Source: Candidatus Asgardarchaeum abyssi
GTDB taxonomy: Archaea > Asgardarchaeota > Asgardarchaeia > Asgardarchaeales > Asgardarchaeaceae
DNA length: 25,043 bases
Reading direction: 5' to 3'
Assembly (NCBI GenBank): GCA_040225955.1
Contig: JBECUL010000032.1
Coordinates: 1 to 25,043 of the forward strand
Shown here: positions 5,544-24,577 of the stretch, piece by piece
Layout: each line of letters opens with the position of its first letter
Numbering within the stretch: the first letter of the stretch is position 1
Translations under genes and position numbers: made by a program
Notes under the pieces: model-generated
Told to the model about the DNA's origin: nothing
The model's database searches: none
The model's input: the letters and a program-made list of their open reading frames with translations, nothing else

Positions 5544-6074
5544 TTATTCTATAGAGGCTCCACAGTTCGGGCAGAACTTTGCATTTAACGGTGCTGCTGA
5601 ACCACAATATGGACATACCTTATAACTCAATGTTTGTCCAGACTCTGAAGATATTGGCATTTGCATTGTCGGCATTGGTTGATACTGTTCACCACTTATC
5701 TCCGGTATTACTGGTCTTACACCATCAACTTCATAAATAACAAGCTCCCCTGTGTTGGGATCAAAAGTTGCTTTTAACCGTCCATCGGAGCGCAAATAAT
5801 TAATTATTTTTAATATCTTACGTCTGCTAATTTTAATCTCTCTACTCAAGTCTCTTATGCTTACTCTATGATACATTTTAAGTGTATTTGCTACGAGATT
5901 TACCTTATAGTGATACTCATAGTATTCGTGTACAGCGCCGAATAATACCCATACTCCTGCAAAGGCGATCCAAGGAGAGCCTGGAAAATCAGGGAATATT
6001 ATACAGAGTAATCCCCATCCTATGAAAATTAATCCAACACCAAGTGTTGAAACAAATTCGTGGTAATAACCCAA
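5544..6074 (-). CDS. Membrane protein with PCI-like winged helix and C-terminal zinc ribbon
   Basis: Two N-terminal TM helices, YHRVSIRDLSREIKIS...LRSDGRLKATFD winged helix, Pro/Gln-rich linker, CPYC-x10-CPNC; TTG start with AGGTGA SD. Confidence 0.75.
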   Translation of the reverse strand: MGYYHEFVSTLGVGLIFIGWGLLCIIFPDFPGSPWIAFAGVWVLFGAVHEYYEYHYKVNLVANTLKMYHRVSIRDLSREIKISRRKILKIINYLRSDGRLKATFDPNTGELVIYEVDGVRPVIPEISGEQYQPMPTMQMPISSESGQTLSYKVCPYCGSAAPLNAKFCPNCGASIE

Positions 6075-14981: not shown

Positions 14982-15965
14982 CTATTTAAAAACCCTTCTA
15001 AATACGCGTAAGAAGTTCTCTCCAAGAATTTTTCTTATCTCATTATCAGAGTATCCTCGTGAGACTAATCCCTTCACTATGTTAACGAACTTTGTCACAT
15101 CTTCAAAACCTTTAGGCCATGTGTATATTTTGCCATCTATTTCTAATAGGCGAATTCTTCTTTCTAAACTCTCGCTCCACCCTTCTGCAAAATCAGATCC
15201 TATTCCAACATGGTCTACGCCTATGAGGTCAACTATATAGTCAATGTGATCTAGCATGTCATTAATCGTACAATTTTCTCCACCTAGAAGTCTTGGAAAG
15301 CCAGTAACTCCAATAACTCCACCTTTTTCAGCTAACGCTTTTAGCTCATCATCATAATGATTTTGATAAGTATCAACTAATGCTCTCGCACTTGAATGGG
15401 AGAAAATCACTGGATCTTTAGAGACTTCAATCGTTTCTAATGATGTTTTGGGACCCACATGAGCTAAATCTATCAAAATTCCCAATTCATTTAGTTTTTC
15501 AACCAATTCTAATCCAAACTTAGTTAGTCCGGTATCGTGTCGTTCAGCACCTCCAGTACCTGCGATATTTTGAAAATGATACGTCAATTGGAAGATTCTG
15601 AGACCTAACTTATAATAAATATCAAGCATGTCAAGTCTACCTTCCAGAGGGTCTACATTTTGAAATCCGATTAGAAATGCTGTTTTATTCTCCTTTTTTG
15701 CAGTTAGTATATCCTCAGCTGTTGTTGCCAACATTATTAGGTCGCTATGTTTCTTAAAGTAACCATAAAGACGAGCAAAACGTTTAATTGTCTCTGATAT
15801 GTTCTGGTTCATTGCAATTGTATAATTTATTGCTGTTATACCAGCGTTACGTAACTTCTCAAAATACCCACGATACATCAGTGAGGCATTTAACCCATCA
15901 ATCACTATACATTTCCTATAAAGTTCCTCAGCATGCTCCTCTTCATCTTTTGAAAGATTAAACAT
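14982..15965 (-). CDS. Membrane dipeptidase (peptidase M19) family protein with atypical metal site
   Basis: GLRIFQLTY, DTGLTKFG, IDLAHVG, FSHS, DHIDY and GIGSDF motifs; the canonical HxD is replaced by DGLNA and the bridging Glu by Gln (GFQN). Confidence 0.85.
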   Translation of the reverse strand: MFNLSKDEEEHAEELYRKCIVIDGLNASLMYRGYFEKLRNAGITAINYTIAMNQNISETIKRFARLYGYFKKHSDLIMLATTAEDILTAKKENKTAFLIGFQNVDPLEGRLDMLDIYYKLGLRIFQLTYHFQNIAGTGGAERHDTGLTKFGLELVEKLNELGILIDLAHVGPKTSLETIEVSKDPVIFSHSSARALVDTYQNHYDDELKALAEKGGVIGVTGFPRLLGGENCTINDMLDHIDYIVDLIGVDHVGIGSDFAEGWSESLERRIRLLEIDGKIYTWPKGFEDVTKFVNIVKGLVSRGYSDNEIRKILGENFLRVFRRVFK

Positions 15966-15987
15966 ATTCTCACCTCACCTCGAGTAA

Positions 15988-17379
15988 TTACTTATTGATA
16001 AAATTAGTTTTCTCTTTTAGAGTTTCAAGAAAAACCTCCTTTAACTCTGGCTCTATTTTCTCTTTTACCCTATCAAGAATTTTTTGCTCATCTACTGTTA
16101 GAATTTTTCGATCTCTCATTACTACTCTGCCATCAATTATTACCGTCTCTACATCATGGCCATTAGCCGCATAAACTATTGTATTAATAACATCACAAAC
16201 TGGTTGCAAATGCACCTTTTGTAGGTTGATAATTGCAATATCAGCTTTCTTACCAGCTTCTATACTTCCAACTTCATTTTCCATAAAGACCGCTTTGGCT
16301 CCTTCGATAGTAGCCATCCTTAAAACATCTTTTCCTGTTAATGATCTTGCTTTTAAGGTTGATACTTTAGATAGGAAGGCTGCTGCTCTCATAGTTTCTA
16401 TCATATCCAGATTGTCGTTACTAGCTGCACCATCTGTTGCCAGAGATACGGTAATTCCTTTGTCAAGCATCTTCCTTATTGGTGCTATACCAGACGCCAG
16501 CCTCATGTTTGACTTTGGATTATGAGATACTTTAACACCAGCTTTTGCAAGCATATTAATTTCTTCATCATCCAACCAAATGCAGTGAACAGCTAATAGT
16601 CTATCGTCCAGTAAACCAACTTTCTCTAAAAATCTGATAGGAGTTAACCCAGTTTCCTTTTTGGTCAGTTCAACCTCATATGGTGCCTCAGAGACATGAG
16701 TAGTTATGGGAACTCCAGTCTCATTAGATTGCTCTTTGATCATTCTAAGAAAGTCTTCAGTACATATATAGGGAGTCGACGGAGCATATATCATCTTTAT
16801 ACGGCCGTTTCTAGAATTATGCCACTCATTAATAGATTCCCTTATATCCTTAAGCACTTGTTCAGGAGGTCTTATGAGGTCCTCTGGTATCCATTTATTA
16901 GCTAAAGTGACGCCAGCTATGCCACGAATACCCACATCGTCAAATGCTTTAAGTGACATTTTATAATTGGCACTAAAATCAAGTATAGTGGTGGTTCCAG
17001 TTTTTATAGCTTCTATTGAAGCAAGTAATGCTCCATAATAATAAAATTCGTTGAATCCGTTAGAAATGAACTTTTCGGATAGCCGAACTATAGGAAATAA
17101 AACTAAGTTGCACCATGGCTCTAACTCAAGATCATCATGCCAGCCTTTCATGAAGTTTTGGTAGGTATGAGAGTGCGTATTTATAAATCCTGGGACCACT
17201 GCTTTTCCCTTAGCATCTATAATTTCGTAATCCTTAGAATTATATTTTTTCTCGATTTTTGAGCACTTTCCAACATCTACAATTTTGTTACTCTCGATCA
17301 CAACAGCTCCGTTTTCGATTATTTGATTGCTTTTATCGCAAGTGATAACATATCCACCTTTTATGAGGAGGTTCAACAA
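15988..17379 (-). CDS. Amidohydrolase superfamily deaminase (MtaD/TrzA/8-oxoguanine deaminase group)
   Basis: PGFINTHSH, GTTT, HVSE, VHCIWL, HNPKSNMRLASG, TDGAASN and GSIEAGKKAD motifs; TTG start with a strong SD. Confidence 0.9.
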   Translation of the reverse strand: MLNLLIKGGYVITCDKSNQIIENGAVVIESNKIVDVGKCSKIEKKYNSKDYEIIDAKGKAVVPGFINTHSHTYQNFMKGWHDDLELEPWCNLVLFPIVRLSEKFISNGFNEFYYYGALLASIEAIKTGTTTILDFSANYKMSLKAFDDVGIRGIAGVTLANKWIPEDLIRPPEQVLKDIRESINEWHNSRNGRIKMIYAPSTPYICTEDFLRMIKEQSNETGVPITTHVSEAPYEVELTKKETGLTPIRFLEKVGLLDDRLLAVHCIWLDDEEINMLAKAGVKVSHNPKSNMRLASGIAPIRKMLDKGITVSLATDGAASNDNLDMIETMRAAAFLSKVSTLKARSLTGKDVLRMATIEGAKAVFMENEVGSIEAGKKADIAIINLQKVHLQPVCDVINTIVYAANGHDVETVIIDGRVVMRDRKILTVDEQKILDRVKEKIEPELKEVFLETLKEKTNFINK

Positions 17380-17414
17380 TCACCACTCCTCGCTGGTAAT
17401 ATTAAACACAGTTA

Positions 17415-17435
17415 TATGTGTCATATAAGGCATAT
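17415..17435 (-). promoter_or_regulatory. Operator copy 1 (ATATGCCTTATATGACACATA on the minus strand) upstream of the deaminase-dipeptidase operon
   Basis: 17/21 identity to the site at 18365-18385; overlaps the palindrome TTATATG-N3-CATATAA (17412-17428); abuts a TATA-like AATTAATAT. Confidence 0.7.
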
Positions 17436-17562
17436 TAATTTTTTTATAAGAAACAGCATAGTTTTCAAAATCCTTATAAGTATAGCAAGCGTAAATTTTA
17501 AAAAATGTTATATTGAAAAGCTCAAAATAGACTCAGTATAGCAAGTTCCGGGTGAAAATATA

Positions 17563-18264
17563 TTGTTTAGAAGATTGTTAAACGCTAGACTTGATGAGGA
17601 GTTCATACTGCAGAATATCTTAAGTGAGATTAGGGTGAAAATACTCAGAAGTATAACAAAAGAGCCAAAAACTGCCTTTCAATTATCAAAAGAATTAGGG
17701 TTACATACCTCAACTATTTATCGGAATTTAGATGTGCTAGGTGCTTATGGATTGGTGCGTGTTTTTAAAGTTGAGAGCTTTAAGCATCTTCTTAAAAAAT
17801 ATTATATGGTAACGCTTAAAGGATTTTATGTCGCGTTTGATTTTTTGAAAGATCTAAGTTATGAGTTTTATTATAATTTTGAAAAGTACTTTTCATATAG
17901 ATGGAGCATTCAAATCCCTGAAGAGTGCATTTCAGAGTACGCAAAAATATCTTCAAACGAGAAATTAGTTAAAGTTGAACATGAGATGATGAAAAAGTTT
18001 CTTAAGGAAACTCCGTTTACTTTAGAGGACTTAAATGATCTGGATACCATCCTTACGTTCATAGTATATGTTATTAAGAATTGTAATGACGAAGAGATAA
18101 GAAAATTGGAGGTTGAGAGAATTAAAATCCATGCAAAGACTGTTTCTAAAATGCCTCAATTTATTGATATATTACGGAGACGTCTTACTGAAAAAATAGA
18201 AAGTGCTAAGATGTACTTGGAGATTCTATATAAAGCAACTCAAGAAAAGAAACCTATTTCATGA
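17563..18264 (+). CDS. ArsR-like winged-helix transcriptional regulator with extended C-terminal domain
   Basis: RVKILRSI...KTAFQLSKELGLHTSTIYRNLDVL...GLV...KKYY; GGTGA SD before the TTG. Confidence 0.85.
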   Translation: MFRRLLNARLDEEFILQNILSEIRVKILRSITKEPKTAFQLSKELGLHTSTIYRNLDVLGAYGLVRVFKVESFKHLLKKYYMVTLKGFYVAFDFLKDLSYEFYYNFEKYFSYRWSIQIPEECISEYAKISSNEKLVKVEHEMMKKFLKETPFTLEDLNDLDTILTFIVYVIKNCNDEEIRKLEVERIKIHAKTVSKMPQFIDILRRRLTEKIESAKMYLEILYKATQEKKPIS

Positions 18265-18364
18265 CAACTAAGAATGTTTGCTTAGATGGATTTTTAGATA
18301 AAAGATTTTGTTATTTTTAAGCTAATTTATTATTTCTATATGTAAACACTTACGCAAATTATTT

Positions 18365-18385
18365 ATATGACTTATGTGTCATATA
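18365..18385 (+). promoter_or_regulatory. Operator copy 2 (ATATGACTTATGTGTCATATA) upstream of the ECF operon
   Basis: Palindrome TATATGAC-N6-GTCATATA (18364-18385) overlapping a TATA-like TTTATAT; matches copy 1. Confidence 0.7.
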
Positions 18386-18445
18386 TGTTCTCAAAGAATT
18401 TCATGCCTACCACTATTTTAACTTAAATTAAATAAGGTGAAAGAC

Positions 18446-19234
18446 ATGGGCGAAGAAGAAAAGATGATTCCAGTTTGGACTCCTGGAACACCAATCATTG
18501 GTGGAGTCCATATCGGACTTATCATTGCTTGGGTTGCAATAAAACTAGCTGCTGCTGCTATTCCAACTTTTCCTATTCCTGGTCTTCCTGGCTCATTATC
18601 CGCCGCCATGTTCCTTAAAGGTCTAACGGGTCCATTGCTAGGACCATATGCAGGCTTTATAGGCGGCTTGGCTTTTGGAATATTGAATCAGTTTATCTTT
18701 CCATATACTGCCTTTTTCGGTCCACTGACTTTCCTAACAAATGTTACTGGCTTCACTTTTGAGGGTCTTGCACTTTACCCCAGAAAGAAAGGCTGGATAA
18801 TTACGGTTATCTATTTCATTGTTATGTTGCTACTATGGTACTTCTATAAGGGTGGTGCTGGATTAGTTGGAGGAATGCCACTAGTCACATGGGAGCACTG
18901 GTTTGCAATTCTAATCCTAGTAATACCATGGGTTCGTAACTTCATGCAAGAATCCATAATTAAACGGGACAATCCTGCAAAGCTATTCATAGCGCTATTT
19001 TTGATTGGCTGGGTTGGATCTATGGCAAACAACATTATGGGCTGTGTCCTTGCATTCTATATGTGGGACTTTACCAATCCTATCTATTGGGTGCCAATGA
19101 TTCCATACTATGCTGCAACGGACATTCTAGCATCTATAATTGGTTCCATAGTAGGTACTGCAGTTTTAATATCATTGAAGCGAGCAAACATAAGGGTATT
19201 CATCGATGAGCTGCTGGTAGTAGAAGAAAGTTAA
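18446..19234 (+). CDS. ECF transporter substrate-specific S-component
   Basis: GPLLGPYAGFIGG signature, multiple TMs, directly upstream of ECF ATPase and T genes; ATG 18446 follows AGGTGA. Confidence 0.8.
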   Translation: MGEEEKMIPVWTPGTPIIGGVHIGLIIAWVAIKLAAAAIPTFPIPGLPGSLSAAMFLKGLTGPLLGPYAGFIGGLAFGILNQFIFPYTAFFGPLTFLTNVTGFTFEGLALYPRKKGWIITVIYFIVMLLLWYFYKGGAGLVGGMPLVTWEHWFAILILVIPWVRNFMQESIIKRDNPAKLFIALFLIGWVGSMANNIMGCVLAFYMWDFTNPIYWVPMIPYYAATDILASIIGSIVGTAVLISLKRANIRVFIDELLVVEES

Positions 19235-19237
19235 TTA

Positions 19238-19252
19238 TTTTTTTCTTTTTTT
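19238..19252 (+). terminator. Oligo-T tract (T7-C-T7), possible internal archaeal terminator
   Basis: Immediately after the S-component stop and before the ATPase SD. Confidence 0.4.
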
Positions 19253-19274
19253 ATTAAACTTAAGGTGTGGGTAA

Positions 19275-21044
19275 ATGAACAATACTGAGGAAAGAGTAAT
19301 ATATATAGAAAATCTATCTTTTAAGTATTCTGGCTCGAAACGGGAAGCACTAAAGAATATCTCTCTTTCTATTAACAAGGGAGAATTTGTCGCGATAATG
19401 GGCCCTACTGGTGCTGGTAAATCAACATTATGCTTAACCTTAAATGGAAGCATACCTTATATGATACATGGTCATTTAAAAGGAAAAGTCTTGGTGGATT
19501 CCATTAATACTCAGGAAACCCTTATGCAAAAACTAGCAAGTATTGTTGGATTGGTCTTTCAAAACCCTAACTTACAATTATTTTGTCTCGATGTAGAAAG
19601 TGAACTAGCCTTTGGACCTGAAAATTTAGCTGTTGAACGTGAGGAAATTGCAAGAAGAGTTCATGAGATTGCGAAGCTTCTTAGATTAGAAGACTTGCTT
19701 GAACGATCACCATCACAGCTTAGTGGGGGTCAAAAACAAGCTGTTGCCATAGGCGCAGTTTTAACTATGTTACCAAAGGTATTGGTTTTAGATGAACCAA
19801 CTAGCAATTTAGATCCCATAGGAACAAAGCAAGTGTTTGAAATACTGAAAAGGCTAAAGAAGGAAAAAGGAATAACAGTAATCATAGTGAGTCACAAGAG
19901 TGAAGAGATCGCAGAGTTTGTTGATAGAATAGTAATTCTACGAGATGGAGAAAAATTCATGGATGGGAAACCTGAAGAAATCTTTAGCGAGAAGGATATT
20001 GTAAATAAAACATTTATTCGTCCTCCACAAGTTAGTGAGCTGATTTATAAACTTATTCAGAGAGGATATGCATTTGAGAAAATACCAACAACAATAGATG
20101 AGGCAGCCGAACTCATTAGAGATTTTCTAATTAAGAATAATGTTAATGTTAACAAGAAGGTGACTCTGAACTCAAGCAATCAACAAAAATCTCTTGGAGA
20201 AAGCAGTAGCGTAAAAAATGAGCCTATCATAAAAATACGCAATCTATGGCATATTTATCGTGGTGGAGTTGTTGCAGTAAAGGACATAAACCTTGATATA
20301 TATCCTGGTGAATTTATCTCTATTATTGGACAAAATGGTGCTGGTAAAACAACACTTGTTAAACACTTTAATGGTCTTCTTAAACCAACAAAGGGCTTTG
20401 TAATGGTTAAAGGATACGATACACGTACTATGCAAGTTTCAGAGCTATCTAAATATGTAGGGTATATTTATCAAAATCCTGACGATCAATTGTTTGCAGA
20501 TACTGTTGAAGAGGAAATCGCATTCGGCCCTAGAAACTTAGGTTGGAGCGAGGAGGAAATTAAAAGGAGTGTTAACGAAGTTCTAAAGAGATTAAACTTA
20601 GAACATCTTAGGGACGAGCACCCCTTATCATTAGGACTTGGGGATAGACATCGTGTTGCAGTAGCATCTGTTCTTTCAATGAAACCAGATGTCATTATAT
20701 TAGACGAGCCTACAACTGGGCAAGACTTTCGAGGAAGTCGTGAGATTGTAAACCTAATTAATGACCTAAATAAGGAAGGAAAGACTGTCATTATGATCAC
20801 TCATGATATGTATTTGGTAGCTGAATACTCGCACCGTGTAATCGTAATGGCTCAGGGAGAAATTCTATTAGATGGTACACCAAAAGAGGTTTTCTCAAAA
20901 TCTGAAATTCTTGCAAAGTCTTATCTGTCACCACCTCAGATTACATTGTTGGGTCAGAAGTTGAGTGATGTTGGTTTCCCAAGTGATATACTATCTGTAG
21001 ATGAATTTTGTGATGTATTTGAAAGAATAGTTAAGGGTGGTTAA
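19275..21044 (+). CDS. ecfA: ECF transporter fused dual ATPase (EcfA-A')
   Basis: Two ABC domains: GPTGAGKS / FQNP / LSGGQKQ / LDEPT and GQNGAGKT / YQNPDDQLF / LGLGDRH / LDEPT. Confidence 0.95.
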   Translation: MNNTEERVIYIENLSFKYSGSKREALKNISLSINKGEFVAIMGPTGAGKSTLCLTLNGSIPYMIHGHLKGKVLVDSINTQETLMQKLASIVGLVFQNPNLQLFCLDVESELAFGPENLAVEREEIARRVHEIAKLLRLEDLLERSPSQLSGGQKQAVAIGAVLTMLPKVLVLDEPTSNLDPIGTKQVFEILKRLKKEKGITVIIVSHKSEEIAEFVDRIVILRDGEKFMDGKPEEIFSEKDIVNKTFIRPPQVSELIYKLIQRGYAFEKIPTTIDEAAELIRDFLIKNNVNVNKKVTLNSSNQQKSLGESSSVKNEPIIKIRNLWHIYRGGVVAVKDINLDIYPGEFISIIGQNGAGKTTLVKHFNGLLKPTKGFVMVKGYDTRTMQVSELSKYVGYIYQNPDDQLFADTVEEEIAFGPRNLGWSEEEIKRSVNEVLKRLNLEHLRDEHPLSLGLGDRHRVAVASVLSMKPDVIILDEPTTGQDFRGSREIVNLINDLNKEGKTVIMITHDMYLVAEYSHRVIVMAQGEILLDGTPKEVFSKSEILAKSYLSPPQITLLGQKLSDVGFPSDILSVDEFCDVFERIVKGG

Positions 21045-21888
21045 AATTAGTTCAAGAGGATATGTTGTTTATTATGCGGGTGACACCTTAATACACAAAT
21101 TGGATCCTCGAGCAAAATTAATAATGCTAGCTTATTTCATTGGCCTAGCTTTACTTTTCAGTAACCCCATTCATCTAGCGTTAGTCCTTCTAGCAGCGAT
21201 TCTGATTTGGTTTTATGCGAGGATACCAGCAAAAGAAGTGTCCCGAGTTTATAAATATGTCTATGGAACTCTGGCACTGGTTATTATTATCCAAGGCCTT
21301 AGTTTTCCAACTGGAACCGAAATTCTAAGAATAATCCCAGAGAATCCATTATTAGGAAACGTAGGAGCGTTGACCATAGAGGGTCTAGTCTATGGAATAG
21401 CAATCTCTGAAAGAATCCTAATAATGATGATAATTGGCCCACTGGTAATCTACACAACACCACTTGATAGATTAATCTTAGGAATGGTTAAAATGAAAAT
21501 GCCATACACAATTGCCTATATAATGAGCTCTGCACTCAATATACTACCAAGTGTCCAATTAGAAATAGCGACTATTATTGAAGCTCAGACTGCAAGAGCT
21601 TTTACAAAGCTGGAAACAGGTGGGTTTGTTGAAAGAATGAGAGCGTATATCCCGATATTAGTTCCATTAATAGTAAGTATGGCTAGAAATAGCACACAAT
21701 TATCCCTAGCAATGGCTGCAAGGGCATTTGGTGCATCAAAGGAAAGAACATTTTACCGAGATATTAAAGCTGAGACAAAGGATTACATAGTAATAGGTAT
21801 CATGGTTGTTACATTTGCTATTTTTGTCTACGCATACATAGTATATGGGTTTGGAGCATTTGACTTCTACGCAATAAAGTTCTTCTAA
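21037..21888 (+). CDS. ecfT: ECF transporter transmembrane T component
   Basis: IHKLDPRAKL and two ARA motifs (AQTARA, AMAARAF); overlaps the ATPase stop. Confidence 0.93.
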   Translation: MVKISSRGYVVYYAGDTLIHKLDPRAKLIMLAYFIGLALLFSNPIHLALVLLAAILIWFYARIPAKEVSRVYKYVYGTLALVIIIQGLSFPTGTEILRIIPENPLLGNVGALTIEGLVYGIAISERILIMMIIGPLVIYTTPLDRLILGMVKMKMPYTIAYIMSSALNILPSVQLEIATIIEAQTARAFTKLETGGFVERMRAYIPILVPLIVSMARNSTQLSLAMAARAFGASKERTFYRDIKAETKDYIVIGIMVVTFAIFVYAYIVYGFGAFDFYAIKFF

Positions 21889-21900
21889 ATGGTGAGAAAC

Positions 21901-22554
21901 ATGTTAGGAGAATTTCTTGAGTTCCTTTTAATAATATTCCTTGTGCTTCTCGGAATATACTTCGTGGAGCCTACCATAATAGCTAATATGATGAGGACCT
22001 TTAGTGGAATTCCTGCTTGGAGATCCCTAGCTCTAGCACTTTTTCAGAGAGCACTGTGCTTTGATTCTCCTGGAGCCTCTCAACTAAATATCATAGAGCT
22101 TAACTTTGGAGACATCTACGTAGTAGCATTTTGGCTGTTAACAGGTTTACTCTTTGGTTATAGACATAAAAGCATCAAGAATGTTCTAATTATAGGACTA
22201 ATAACACCACTAGCTACTGCACAAGTTTATATTATGATGCTTCAACAGTACACTCCTGATCTTTGGAATAGCTTTTCTCCTAAAATGCAAGAAACGATTA
22301 CGCACACCGCTTACATGAATGGCTTACAATTGAGTTTAGTCTTAATTGCAGGTTTACTAGCGATGGCAGTAGTCAGAAAAATAAAAATGCGAAAACCAAT
22401 GGCAATTTACATAATTCCTGAAGAGGAGAAAAAGCCACTATTAATAAAATGTCCAGCTTGCAGGAAAGTTCATTATTCGAATGCAAGATTTTGCAGTAAT
22501 TGTGGGACTCCCATGGCAGAAAAGGTAGAAACAACTGAGGAAACAACTATATAA
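21901..22554 (+). CDS. Membrane protein with C-terminal zinc ribbon
   Basis: About four TMs, then CPAC-x10-CSNC; ATG 21901 follows GGTGAG (ATG 21889 also possible). Confidence 0.75.
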   Translation: MLGEFLEFLLIIFLVLLGIYFVEPTIIANMMRTFSGIPAWRSLALALFQRALCFDSPGASQLNIIELNFGDIYVVAFWLLTGLLFGYRHKSIKNVLIIGLITPLATAQVYIMMLQQYTPDLWNSFSPKMQETITHTAYMNGLQLSLVLIAGLLAMAVVRKIKMRKPMAIYIIPEEEKKPLLIKCPACRKVHYSNARFCSNCGTPMAEKVETTEETTI

Positions 22555-22567
22555 TAGAGGGACACTA

Positions 22568-23431
22568 ATGAACATCGGATTCACATCAATGTATTTTTTC
22601 GAACTTCCAATAGATGAAATCTTCAAAATAGCTAATGAACTAAATTTTTCCTTTATAGAACTAAATTCTGAGCTGTATTGCCTTGAGTCTTCAAATAAGT
22701 CAGAGAAAATGATAGCTTCCGAGATTATAGACTTAAAAAATAGCTATAACGTAAATTTAGAGCTACATGCACCCTACGTTGACATTAACCTTTTAAGCTA
22801 TAATAAGGAAATTCAAAAAACATCTTGGAAAGAAATTCTAAAAGCTCTACATTTTGCATACCTAACAGAGATTGATATTGTAACTCTGCATCTTGGGAGG
22901 TTTCCATTTGGGCTTGAATTAAAACAAGATGAAAATAGTTTTCTTAAAAAGATATACCAGAGAGGGGTTAATTATCTTAAGAATATATTACAATTTGCAA
23001 AGACCCATGAAATTAAAGTTGGTGTCGAAAATTTGCACTTTTTCCCCGGTAAGTTTCCGAAATATCCAGAGGATTTTGAGATGCTTATCAGTGATATACC
23101 AGATTTAAAAATAACTTTTGATTTGGCACATGCTTATACAATATCTGACGTCTTGGCTGAGGAATTAATGAAAAGGATGCATGATAGGATTATAAACATA
23201 CACGTAAGTGATGTCGATGATACAACCAATGATCACCATATTAGCATTGGTGATGGTAAGGTCGATTTCTCTTTATTTTTTAAGAATATGAAAAAGTATA
23301 AGATTGAAGCTCCAATAGTAATCGAACTAGATGCAATAAAAGTTTGTGGAGATAAAATCTCAAACCTCCGTTATCGTAAGGATATGCTTCTAAAATCAAA
23401 ATCAAAACTTCTTAATTTTGCAAAGCAATAA
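22568..23431 (+). CDS. AP-endonuclease-2/sugar-phosphate isomerase-like TIM-barrel metalloenzyme
   Basis: IEL, LHAPY, VTLHLG, VENL, TFDLAHA, IHVSD, DHHISIGDG and VIE motifs. Confidence 0.88.
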   Translation: MNIGFTSMYFFELPIDEIFKIANELNFSFIELNSELYCLESSNKSEKMIASEIIDLKNSYNVNLELHAPYVDINLLSYNKEIQKTSWKEILKALHFAYLTEIDIVTLHLGRFPFGLELKQDENSFLKKIYQRGVNYLKNILQFAKTHEIKVGVENLHFFPGKFPKYPEDFEMLISDIPDLKITFDLAHAYTISDVLAEELMKRMHDRIINIHVSDVDDTTNDHHISIGDGKVDFSLFFKNMKKYKIEAPIVIELDAIKVCGDKISNLRYRKDMLLKSKSKLLNFAKQ

Positions 23432-23487: not shown

Positions 23488-23988
23488 TTAATCTACGAAA
23501 ACACCTAAGTCTTCAAGTTGGTCCACAATTCTTCTCATGACCGGAGTAAAGCCTACAATCAATATAAATTCGGGAATCGCTATAAATGGTAATATCCATA
23601 AAAACGGGATCCCCAATACAAAGGATAGCATAAATGAAACAGCAAATGTGATAGATGCTGCGAAAAAAGCACTTCCGATTAAAGGATGTATCTTCTGGGA
23701 AAGATAATATGCACCCATAGCACCAATAAAGTTCCACAAAGGCATCCAAGTATATTCAAGGAACCCAAATGGACTAAATAAGTTTGATATAAAGTTGCCA
23801 ACAGCAAATGCATATGCAAACCATTTTCTCTTTGTTGCCATCCCCTTTAGAGCTTCTGAGACTCTAAATTGTATTACTGCATACGATATTGGTGCTACGG
23901 CCCATGTTATTGCAGCATACACCGAAGCCAACATACCAATTTGAATGAGCATTTTAAGAGATTTTGTCTTCTCTGAAATTTCTGACAT
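23488..23988 (-). CDS. queT: QueT family ECF S-component (queuosine/7-deazaguanine precursor transporter family)
   Basis: ASVYAAIT..APISYAVIQFRVSEAL...GNFISNLFSPFG signature; ATG 23988 follows GGTGGTGA. Confidence 0.85.
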   Translation of the reverse strand: MSEISEKTKSLKMLIQIGMLASVYAAITWAVAPISYAVIQFRVSEALKGMATKRKWFAYAFAVGNFISNLFSPFGFLEYTWMPLWNFIGAMGAYYLSQKIHPLIGSAFFAASITFAVSFMLSFVLGIPFLWILPFIAIPEFILIVGFTPVMRRIVDQLEDLGVFVD

Positions 23989-24140
23989 TTTAATCACCAC
24001 CAAGATGGCGTGTGGTTATGAAAGTTAAGATTCACTTCTCTTAAATTTTGTGATAAAGTAGCCAATATCTGTGTTCTATGGTTTTTCAAGACTTTAGATA
24101 CATTTTATATCTATTCAAGCTAAAAATTGGTATTAAAGCA

Positions 24141-24577
24141 ATGGAGTTGTTACTTGTGTTTATTAAGGTTGAAGGGAAAAAATCGGAGGCAAAATAGTTT
24201 TTGACCTGCTCAAATCATATGGCTTTAGGTTAAAATACCTTGACGAAAGCGAAGATAATATCATACATGGATTTTTTCGATTTTAGTGAGTTTAGCGGTG
24301 AAGTTGCCCTCTTAGGAGGGCGTGAGGTCCTCTTTGTTTCATTCACTCTCATGAAAGAGTTAGAATATCTAAAGAAGAAAATTAAAAGCCTAGTTGTAAC
24401 ATTAGTTGATAATGAAATATCAGTTCATAACCCGGCTTTAGTAACGTTCGATGGTGAAGATGTATACATAGAAATTATAGTTAAGGAAGGAACACAATAT
24501 CCTCTAGATGCAAATTTAAATGTTAAGACAACTTTGCGCAATAAAGGAAAAGAGAAAATGGTTCTTAAGAATATTAC
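24141..24577 (+). pseudogene. Disrupted hypothetical gene truncated by the IS insertion
   Basis: ORF 24240-24668 runs into the GC-rich IS end after ...LKNIT. Its last native part (YIEIIVK..QYPLDANLNVKTTLRNKG) looks like the start of an Ig-like domain. The 5' part can be joined from ATG 24141 through two homopolymer frameshifts. Confidence 0.4.

Follow-up and report, generated by a model that had tools for sequence, protein, structure and literature searches.

A three-unit regulon built around an energy-coupling factor importer in an Asgard archaeon, with a possible link to methanopterin-type pterins

A 25,043-nucleotide contig of Candidatus Asgardarchaeum abyssi (the window; contig C32 of the source metagenome-assembled genome (MAG), here G000) encodes at positions 14982-23431 the parts of an energy-coupling factor (ECF) importer, two proteins of hydrolase families and a candidate repressor. 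Three transcription units of this genome, two of them in the window and one on contig C12, carry one TATA-proximal operator. These are a leftward pair of genes for an amidohydrolase (AH1) and an M19-like protein, a rightward operon for an S-component (S), a fused ATPase (AA′), a T component (T), a zinc-ribbon membrane protein (ZnTM) and a TIM-barrel protein, and a four-gene operon on C12. Our best explanation, offered tentatively and at somewhat less than even confidence, is that the regulon imports and processes a pterin of the methanopterin type, either whole or as a large fragment. The pointer to a pterin comes from orthology and from gene context in other archaea, and from nothing in the window itself.

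Gene content was established from the open reading frame (ORF) listing and from Pfam and NCBIfam scans of window positions 14982-23431. Eight genes lie there, namely the leftward pair, a central winged helix-turn-helix (wHTH) gene and five rightward genes, with coordinates that agree with the ORF list. The scans bear out the gene set of a preliminary description, which had proposed a leftward deaminase and M19 hydrolase, a central wHTH regulator and a rightward S-AA′-T-ZnTM-TIM barrel operon. A database relative of one window protein is labelled Asgardarchaeia. The MAG comprises 2.6 Mb in 189 contigs and is 93% complete with 7.8% contamination.

One operator at three transcription units

The exact 13-mer TATGTGTCATATA lies at 17415-17427 and 18373-18385, that is, at both promoters of the window, where the preliminary description had placed a common operator. 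The 2.6-Mb genome contains three copies of it, where base composition predicts about 0.4, and each copy follows a TATA-like box 21-55 nt ahead of a start codon. At the AH1-M19 promoter (operator O1, 17406..17447, minus strand) the TATA-like box is followed, in the direction of the gene, by TAATATGCCTTATATGACACATAT; at the promoter of the S operon (operator O2, 18356..18388, plus strand) the sequence is TTTATATGACTTATGTGTCATATATG. Within a block of about 24 nt, the core ATATG-N3-CATAT forms an imperfect palindrome. A fourth operator-like site, a near-match at C21:13531, was dismissed as chance because it falls inside a coding region.

The third copy stands at the promoter of the C12 operon (operator fragment at about 39100-39150 of C12), which encodes, in order, a GlcD-like FAD enzyme, a CCG/2x[4Fe-4S] protein of the TfrB/LdhH/GlpC type, a second amidohydrolase (AH2) and a nitroreductase-family protein that scores 105 bits with BluB and 77 bits with the FbiB C-terminal domain, both under cut-off. 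AH2 is the closest paralogue of AH1. The two genes have promoters laid out alike, with a TATA-like box, operator, leader, GGTGA-type ribosome site and start codon, and O1 and the C12 promoter share 24 identical nucleotides although the proteins are 67% identical. The block at the S promoter has the same orientation relative to its gene as the blocks at the AH1 and C12 promoters. It is also retained upstream of S in two orthologous loci, as TTATGTGACATATA in L014 (79% S identity) and TTATGTGTCATATA in L015 (71%), where the remaining spacer has diverged. Because a third operator-bearing operon exists on C12, the regulon is larger than the window, and the "self-contained" system of the preliminary description has to be given up.

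Between the two window operators sits the wHTH gene (17563..18264, plus strand), whose ArsR/TrmB-like product matches HTH_5 at 29.5 bits (cut-off 22) and HTH_20 at 27 bits (cut-off 27) and so contains a winged-helix domain of the ArsR/TrmB type; its C-terminal ~140 residues match no family. The gene was found only in near-identical contigs (L012 and L013). Archaeal repressors commonly act just downstream of the TATA box. The wHTH protein is the presumed repressor of the regulon. Of the co-regulation suggested earlier, the common operator block at three units, kept upstream of S in L014 and L015, stands as observed, and binding of that block by the wHTH protein is predicted.

A group I importer with two fixed accessory genes

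The rightward operon is compact, with spacings of +40, -8, 0 and +13 nt from S through AA′, T and ZnTM to the TIM barrel. Its first gene encodes the S-component (18437..19234, plus strand; the likelier start is the ATG at 18446), a protein with five or six hydrophobic segments that belongs to a small archaeal RibU-like family. The S protein itself gave no Pfam or NCBIfam match. However, three of the 10 database relatives of the family (P0010, P0011 and P0016) carry PF07155, the ECF riboflavin-type S family, and its atlas neighbours are PF07155 clusters, at 0.94. Its identity as an S-component is placed by homology. The Pfam scan of the window proteins returned no PF12822 match, and S was not compared directly with FolT.

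The energizing module is assigned by curated models. The fused ATPase (19275..21044, plus strand; 589 aa) scores 524.8 bits with TIGR04520 (cut-off 315) and 534.6 bits with TIGR04521 (cut-off 330) and has two Walker A motifs, two Walker B motifs and one exact LSGG signature, giving it the two ECF-type ABC ATPase domains of group I systems. The CbiQ-type T component (21037..21888, plus strand) matches PF02361 at 86.7 bits (cut-off 25) and has the Ala-Arg coupling motifs of a group I EcfT, here TARAF and AARAFG; it is one of nine T genes in G000. ZnTM (21889..22554, plus strand) has about four transmembrane helices and a C-terminal CxxC...CxxC zinc ribbon; in an alignment of the family, MxQQY...W and CxxC...CxxC are invariant. 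By homology, S, AA′, T and ZnTM make up a dedicated group I ECF importer with a new RibU-like S-component, and uptake is its predicted activity. Elsewhere in the window (5544-6074, minus strand) lies another small membrane protein with a C-terminal zinc ribbon, unrelated to ZnTM.

The S-AA′-T-ZnTM string and the TIM barrel are conserved together down to 57% S identity, in L012 (98%), L014 (79%), L015 (71%) and L010 and L016 (57%). ZnTM follows T in every one of these orthologous operons. In four orthologous contigs the TIM-barrel gene keeps its synteny with the ECF genes; it is cut by the contig end in L014, and in L010 and L016 it lies on the other side of S, still adjacent. In L015 the order is CCG protein, amidohydrolase, S and onward, so that the CCG-amidohydrolase pair found on C12 in G000 is here contiguous with the ECF operon; in this one further lineage, then, an amidohydrolase adjoins that operon. 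AH1 and AH2, at 67% identity, are closer to each other than to the L015 enzyme (57% and 53.5%), which marks them as in-paralogues that have each kept the operator. The synteny expected among relatives holds for the ECF core, ZnTM and the TIM barrel. The M19-like gene was seen linked to amidohydrolase or ECF genes only in the genome of the window.

The last gene of the operon (22568..23431, plus strand) encodes an MJ1311-family TIM barrel of the AP_endonuc_2 fold (PF01261, 101 bits). It matches MJ1311 (PDB 3WQO) end to end over positions 7-278, with 78.9 bits from the single sequence and 158.2 bits from the profile, and the family profile ranks MJ1311 first, followed by Mycobacterium tuberculosis endonuclease IV (5ZHZ, 42 bits) and then by sugar epimerases. 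H67, H108, E154, D185, H188, H212, H224 and E253 are invariant in the family, and D222, the third-site Asp, is not conserved; the eight invariant positions presumably correspond to the ligand pattern of Escherichia coli endonuclease IV (Nfo), whose trinuclear site has nine metal ligands. No nfo model matched the window protein in the NCBIfam scan. These matches place it in the xylose isomerase/endonuclease IV fold family without making it a demonstrated hydrolase, and it may be a phosphoesterase or isomerase instead of an amide or ring hydrolase. Remote relatives of the barrel in Hadarchaeota, Nitrososphaeria and others have no ECF or C1 (one-carbon) genes nearby.

Convergent with the end of the operon is a QueT-type S-component gene (23488..24003, minus strand; PF06177, 80.3 bits) that has no ATPase or T genes of its own. 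No operator motif was found upstream of it (24004-24240), and it is not counted in the regulon. Its product may borrow the AA′T module of the ECF operon.

Two hydrolase-family proteins in the leftward unit

AH1 (15988..17379, minus strand) is a cog0402-type amidohydrolase/deaminase (PF01979, 246 bits) that resembles the TRZ/ATZ enzymes and the deaminases of methylthioadenosine (MTA), S-adenosylhomocysteine (SAH) and 5′-deoxyadenosine. Its catalytic and metal-binding set is complete (H69/H71, H228-x-x-E231, H265 and D316). It falls under every curated equivalog cut-off, with 423 bits for PRK06038 (cut-off 609), 400 bits for PRK07228 (522) and 237 bits for PRK15493 (779), and neither the DadD nor the MTA/SAH deaminase equivalog is reached. 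On these scores AH1 should not be filed as DadD. The best PDB match is the MTA/SAH deaminase 4F0R (238 bits); Tm0936 scores 180 bits, and 2PAJ, which we take to be an isoxanthopterin-deaminase-type structure, scores 96 bits. The family has about 13 copies in the 2.6-Mb genome, AH1 and some 12 others, on contigs C12, C18 (three), C106, C31, C6, C181, C99, C95, C38 and C10. The three copies on C18 of G000 lie within 14 kb and adjoin a luciferase-like monooxygenase and an IS110-type transposase.

Twenty-two nucleotides separate AH1 from the second gene of the unit, which encodes a protein of the renal dipeptidase fold (14982..15965, minus strand). It belongs to the Peptidase M19 family by its 299.9-bit match to PF01244, and it is atypical, as the preliminary description had noticed: the sequence reads IDGLNAS at the His-x-Asp position and GFQN at the position of the bridging Glu, so that these zinc ligands are replaced, while the two distal His (DLAH and FSHS) and the Asp of GSDF are retained. 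Dipeptidase chemistry cannot be assumed, because the canonical binuclear zinc site is not kept, and by its sequence the protein should not be filed as a dipeptidase. The best solved relative, 2I5G of Pseudomonas aeruginosa, has both substitutions, and nearly all Asgard homologues have Gln instead of the bridging Glu.

M19-like genes occur in 117 of 301 Asgard genomes, the best of them 43-46% identical to the window protein. In 30 Asgard M19-like loci, with about 1.5 kb of flank each, none had an amidohydrolase or ECF gene beside the M19-like gene. Tandem arrays of M19-like paralogues, with as many as seven genes, occur in some Asgard genomes (G101:C6:88898-95544, with further arrays on G252:C138, G138:C2, G240:C119, G282:C8 and G210:C20), and in most of these copies Gln stands where the bridging Glu would be.

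Gene context of the S family and a possible link to methanopterin

Among 400 Asgard genomes, only G000 and G111 gave a strong match to S. On contig C18 of G111 (L010; the wider locus L126 is G111:C18:30000-49999), the S-AA′-T-ZnTM string ends in the gene for FTR, formylmethanofuran:tetrahydromethanopterin (H4MPT) formyltransferase. FTR, ZnTM, T, AA′ and S are convergent with a run that comprises FwdD-B-A-C, Mch, a RimK-like ATP-grasp gene, a CitG-like gene, an unknown 232-aa gene, a B12-binding radical SAM gene and a nucleotidyltransferase (NTase)-like gene. On the far side of S, and divergent from it, the TIM barrel stands beside a CofE-like (F420_ligase) gene. The region is a compact island of C1-cofactor genes, and no β-ribofuranosylaminobenzene 5′-phosphate (RFAP) synthase could be recognised in the genome. 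Weaker matches to the S profile (E values of 1e-13 to 1e-19) are mostly in Asgard families that have FTR and lack RFAP synthase.

A similar association is seen in Bathyarchaeia, where S homologues are solitary genes of 30-39% identity. S is divergent from a CitG-like gene in 23 of 36 genome loci and is followed in 27 of the 36 by two or three paralogous, unclassified NTase-like genes; the cluster adjoins Mch-FwdCABD, with FTR nearby in some loci. A neighbour of Bathyarchaeial S annotated as AA_kinase proved to be carbamate kinase and not a methanofuran kinase. The archaeal CitG-like proteins score far under the CitG/MdcB cut-offs (43-69 bits against about 280), and literature searches on CitG together with methanopterin returned nothing that assigns them a function. 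We hypothesise, by analogy, that the CitG-like and NTase-like genes build the methanopterin side chain in these other archaea. The cross-phylum context of the S family is in keeping with the "pterin or similar" of the substrate guess made earlier.

The inventory of G000 can be read the same way. We detected no Pterin_bind (DHPS/MptH), RFAP synthase or MptE-like gene in this genome, and a search for the CitG-like gene, the NTase-like family and FTR likewise returned none; serine hydroxymethyltransferase, one Mch-family gene and a CofD-family gene are present. This pattern fits an organism that needs a C1-carrier pterin it cannot make, and it would also suit a tie between the S family and methanopterin-linked genes.

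Several observations weigh against a methanopterin-type substrate. The absences in G000 are provisional, given the completeness and contamination of the MAG. The link to pterins, read from gene order, is drawn from no more than two or three lineages (G111 and Bathyarchaeia), and a Korarchaeal S homologue of 43% identity (MAG Kor1, L124 7438-8774) keeps other company, standing beside an archaeal phosphopantetheine adenylyltransferase (PPAT), a mevalonate kinase and a haloacid dehalogenase (HAD) hydrolase. AH1 and AH2 are most like deaminases of adenosine analogues, as the scores for 4F0R and 2PAJ indicate. The need of G000 for H4MPT is itself unproven, because FTR, the Fwd A, B and D subunits and carbon monoxide dehydrogenase/acetyl-CoA synthase are all missing from the genome, which gave only a weak FwdC-like GXGXG match, and because its Mch-like protein is divergent, about 35% identical to the Mch of G111 and of Bathyarchaeia, which are 47-49% identical to each other. 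That protein may not be a genuine methenyl-H4MPT cyclohydrolase, and at such identity the gene loses its value as proof of H4MPT dependence. Nor can the absence of RFAP synthase serve as a special mark of G000, since whole FTR-bearing Asgard families lack it: with RFAP synthase counted above cut-off, FTR is present in 4 of 4 genomes of family f2 and RFAP synthase in 0 of 4, the figures for family f5 are 54 of 76 and 1 of 76, and families f14, f15, f20 and f26 likewise have FTR and no RFAP synthase above cut-off.

Two details of these loci may be added. The Korarchaeal homologue is divergent from the PPAT gene, 36 nt apart, and its neighbour of the GHMP-kinase family is the mevalonate kinase and not an RFAP synthase. 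Dephospho-CoA, the product of PPAT, is the substrate of canonical CitG. The only Mch-family gene of G000 (L125 452-1432, on G000:C6) has no C1-pathway neighbours.

A possible pathway and its alternatives

If the substrate is a methanopterin-type pterin, the regulon could work as follows. The wHTH protein would bind both window operators and block RNA polymerase, and the ligand or one of its derivatives would lift the block. S would capture the compound and AA′T would power its uptake; the TIM barrel, with its endonuclease IV-like metal site, would act on a phosphoester in the side chain, as CbiR does on cobamides; and the M19-like protein would cut an amide, for instance that of a terminal glutamate. 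For AH1 and AH2 the target of deamination or hydrolysis would be the heterocycle or a by-product. The flavo-iron-sulfur pair of the C12 operon, with the nitroreductase-type flavoprotein, could oxidise a released 2-hydroxy acid or re-reduce the pterin. The sequence of steps put forward in the preliminary description, with uptake followed by deamination and then by amide or ring hydrolysis, is hypothetical.

Such a compound may be either salvaged or broken down. In a more specific version of the salvage reading, an archaeon unable to make its C1-carrier pterin would salvage and remodel methanopterin-family cofactors from its environment. The new S family would import methanopterin or sarcinapterin, the TIM barrel would be a CbiR-like cofactor phosphodiesterase acting on the hydroxyglutaryl-phosphate tail, the M19-like protein would remove the terminal glutamate, the GlcD/CCG pair would oxidise the 2-hydroxyglutarate so released, and the nitroreductase-type flavoprotein would re-reduce oxidised pterin. 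We regard this version as improbable. The missing biosynthesis genes fit salvage, whereas breakdown for carbon and nitrogen would agree with the ~13 amidohydrolases, with active sites of the deaminase type and with the lack of genes for tail building. A deaminase that acted on the pterin would destroy the cofactor, a point that suits breakdown better than salvage, but on the evidence as a whole we favour neither.

An adenine-nucleoside-type compound would account for some of the same genes. The regulon would then import and break down 5′-deoxyadenosine, MTA, SAH or a modified adenosine, with AH1 and AH2 deaminating the adenine while other enzymes dispose of the sugar and the side chain. Among solved structures AH1 comes closest to MTA/SAH deaminases, and its 400 bits come from a 5′-deoxyadenosine deaminase model; ECF systems are known for nucleoside-like precursors, such as those of queuosine, and a QueT gene lies next door; and the C12 operon is divergent from genes for an ADP-ribosylglycohydrolase-family protein and a ribokinase-like PfkB protein. 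Yet AH1 and AH2 fall under every curated equivalog cut-off, the three operator-bearing units hold no nucleoside phosphorylase or hydrolase, and with about 13 family copies in the genome, likeness to one characterised cog0402 branch tells little of the substrate. The FTR-ended operon in the methanopterin/methanofuran island of G111 and the CitG-like/NTase-like neighbourhood of Bathyarchaeia would also be left unexplained. We think a nucleoside substrate unlikely. Downstream of the C12 operon, and convergent with it, L072 also holds a two-domain gamma-glutamylcyclotransferase-like gene; this gene and the two divergent ones fall at L072 1933-3892 and 9682-10500.

A little less likely still, in our judgement, is that no single pathway exists, the ECF operon and TIM barrel having one function while AH1-M19 and the C12 operon serve unrelated scavenging under a shared regulator or a duplicated promoter. 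Only G000 shows the M19 link, the amidohydrolase family is greatly expanded and found in varied contexts, and duplication could account for part of the shared 24 nt because AH1 and AH2 are recent in-paralogues. But the S promoter, which is no duplicate of the amidohydrolase promoters, carries the block and keeps it in orthologues at 71-79% identity, the only three exact 13-mers of the genome all stand at the promoters of the three units, and in L015 the CCG-amidohydrolase pair is contiguous with the S operon.

Other phosphodiester-bearing cofactors, namely F420 or its deazaflavin core, a flavin, or methanofuran, are improbable substrates. The RibU-like S would take up the flavin- or deazaflavin-type compound and the TIM barrel would clip its phospholactyl or phosphoester link. 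In this direction point PF07155 on the relatives of S, the CofE-like gene that abuts the TIM barrel in G111, the BluB and FbiB scores of the nitroreductase-family protein, the GlcD/CCG pair, which could oxidise released lactate, and FTR and Fwd, which are next to S in other archaea and use methanofuran. All the supporting scores, however, are under cut-off, PF07155 is too broad a family to fix specificity, and the ribosyl-phosphate transfer expected of the CitG-like and NTase-like proteins from known structures would suit the methanopterin side chain instead. G000 may moreover make F420 itself, because it has a CofD-family gene, and would have no use for methanofuran, because it has neither FTR nor Fwd A, B and D.

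Uptake and remodelling of cobamides, with the TIM barrel as a CbiR-like phosphodiesterase that opens the nucleotide loop, is by far the least probable of these readings. CbiR belongs to the same superfamily, the window protein matches the CbiR model NF041277 weakly and a B12-binding radical SAM gene lies near the G111 operon; but the score of 42 bits is far under the cut-off of 105 and is exceeded by that of a paralogue on C65 of G000 (48.6 bits), and none of the orthologous loci holds a cobamide salvage or loop-assembly gene. We rejected cobamide remodelling on this ranking and because CobS and CbiB, with which a cobamide would be rebuilt, were not found in G000. Neither score nor context, as far as homology goes, allows the TIM barrel to be filed as CbiR.

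Full-text searches returned no paper that links methanopterin, ECF transporters and Asgard archaea, and no transporter for a pterin-type (methanopterin) cofactor was found in the literature searched. We know of no described transporter, salvage or remodelling pathway for methanopterin-type cofactors. Three families without assigned function meet in the regulon: TIM barrels of the MJ1311 type, M19 proteins like 2I5G with a deficient metal site, and one cog0402 branch. Since all three are tied to one pathway, the substrate search narrows for each. Salvage and remodelling, if true, would supply two of them, the MJ1311 family and the 2I5G-type M19 proteins, with a function. Breakdown of a nitrogen heterocycle would instead be a still undescribed catabolic route in an Asgard archaeon. 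With a defined operator, a candidate repressor and a compact importer, cofactor exchange in uncultured Asgard and Bathyarchaeial communities becomes open to direct tests.

Comparison with known systems

The system resembles several described ones in part. The CitG/CitX and MdcB/MdcG prosthetic-group systems have a PF01874 protein next to nucleotidyltransferase-fold proteins, an arrangement also present in the archaeal loci of the S family, but G000 was not found to have the CitG-like and NTase-like genes. With the MTA/SAH deaminases (4F0R and Tm0936) and DadD, AH1 shares the HxH, HxxE, H and D motifs and aligns end to end, while staying under the equivalog cut-offs as one of about 13 family copies in its genome. 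The M19-like protein has its fold in common with renal dipeptidases and with the "amidohydrolase" 2I5G; it shares the changes at His-x-Asp and from Glu to Gln with 2I5G, for which no function assignment was found in literature searches, and does not keep the binuclear zinc site of the dipeptidases.

MJ1311 of Methanocaldococcus jannaschii (3WQO) is the closest solved relative of the TIM barrel, with His, Asp and Glu motifs in common at low identity. MJ1311 has been listed as a predicted endonuclease IV homologue (PMC2770678), and literature searches returned no function assignment for it. CbiR of Akkermansia muciniphila, an AP_endonuc_2 TIM barrel, hydrolyses a phosphodiester inside a cofactor and so remodels cobamides (PMC7733943). 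Like the barrel of the window, it is encoded with genes of cofactor uptake or salvage, and it could serve as a model for metal-dependent phosphodiester cleavage within a cofactor, although the likeness would be one of functional analogy only, given the window protein's score and the lack of cobamide genes around it and of CobS and CbiB in searches of G000.

The nearest counterpart of the whole is a group I ECF system with a RibU-type S-component (PF07155; TIGR04520/TIGR04521; PF02361), which has the same set of modules and the same operon logic. The window system differs in that its S-component comes from a small archaeal family and has no Pfam match, its ATPases are fused, and its operon has two constant further members, a zinc-ribbon membrane protein and a TIM barrel. 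By analogy, it would function like a group I ECF vitamin importer under a local repressor; what is new in it is the S family, the two fixed accessory genes for ZnTM and a TIM barrel of the MJ1311 type, and the grouping of uncharacterised enzymes in a regulon of three units.

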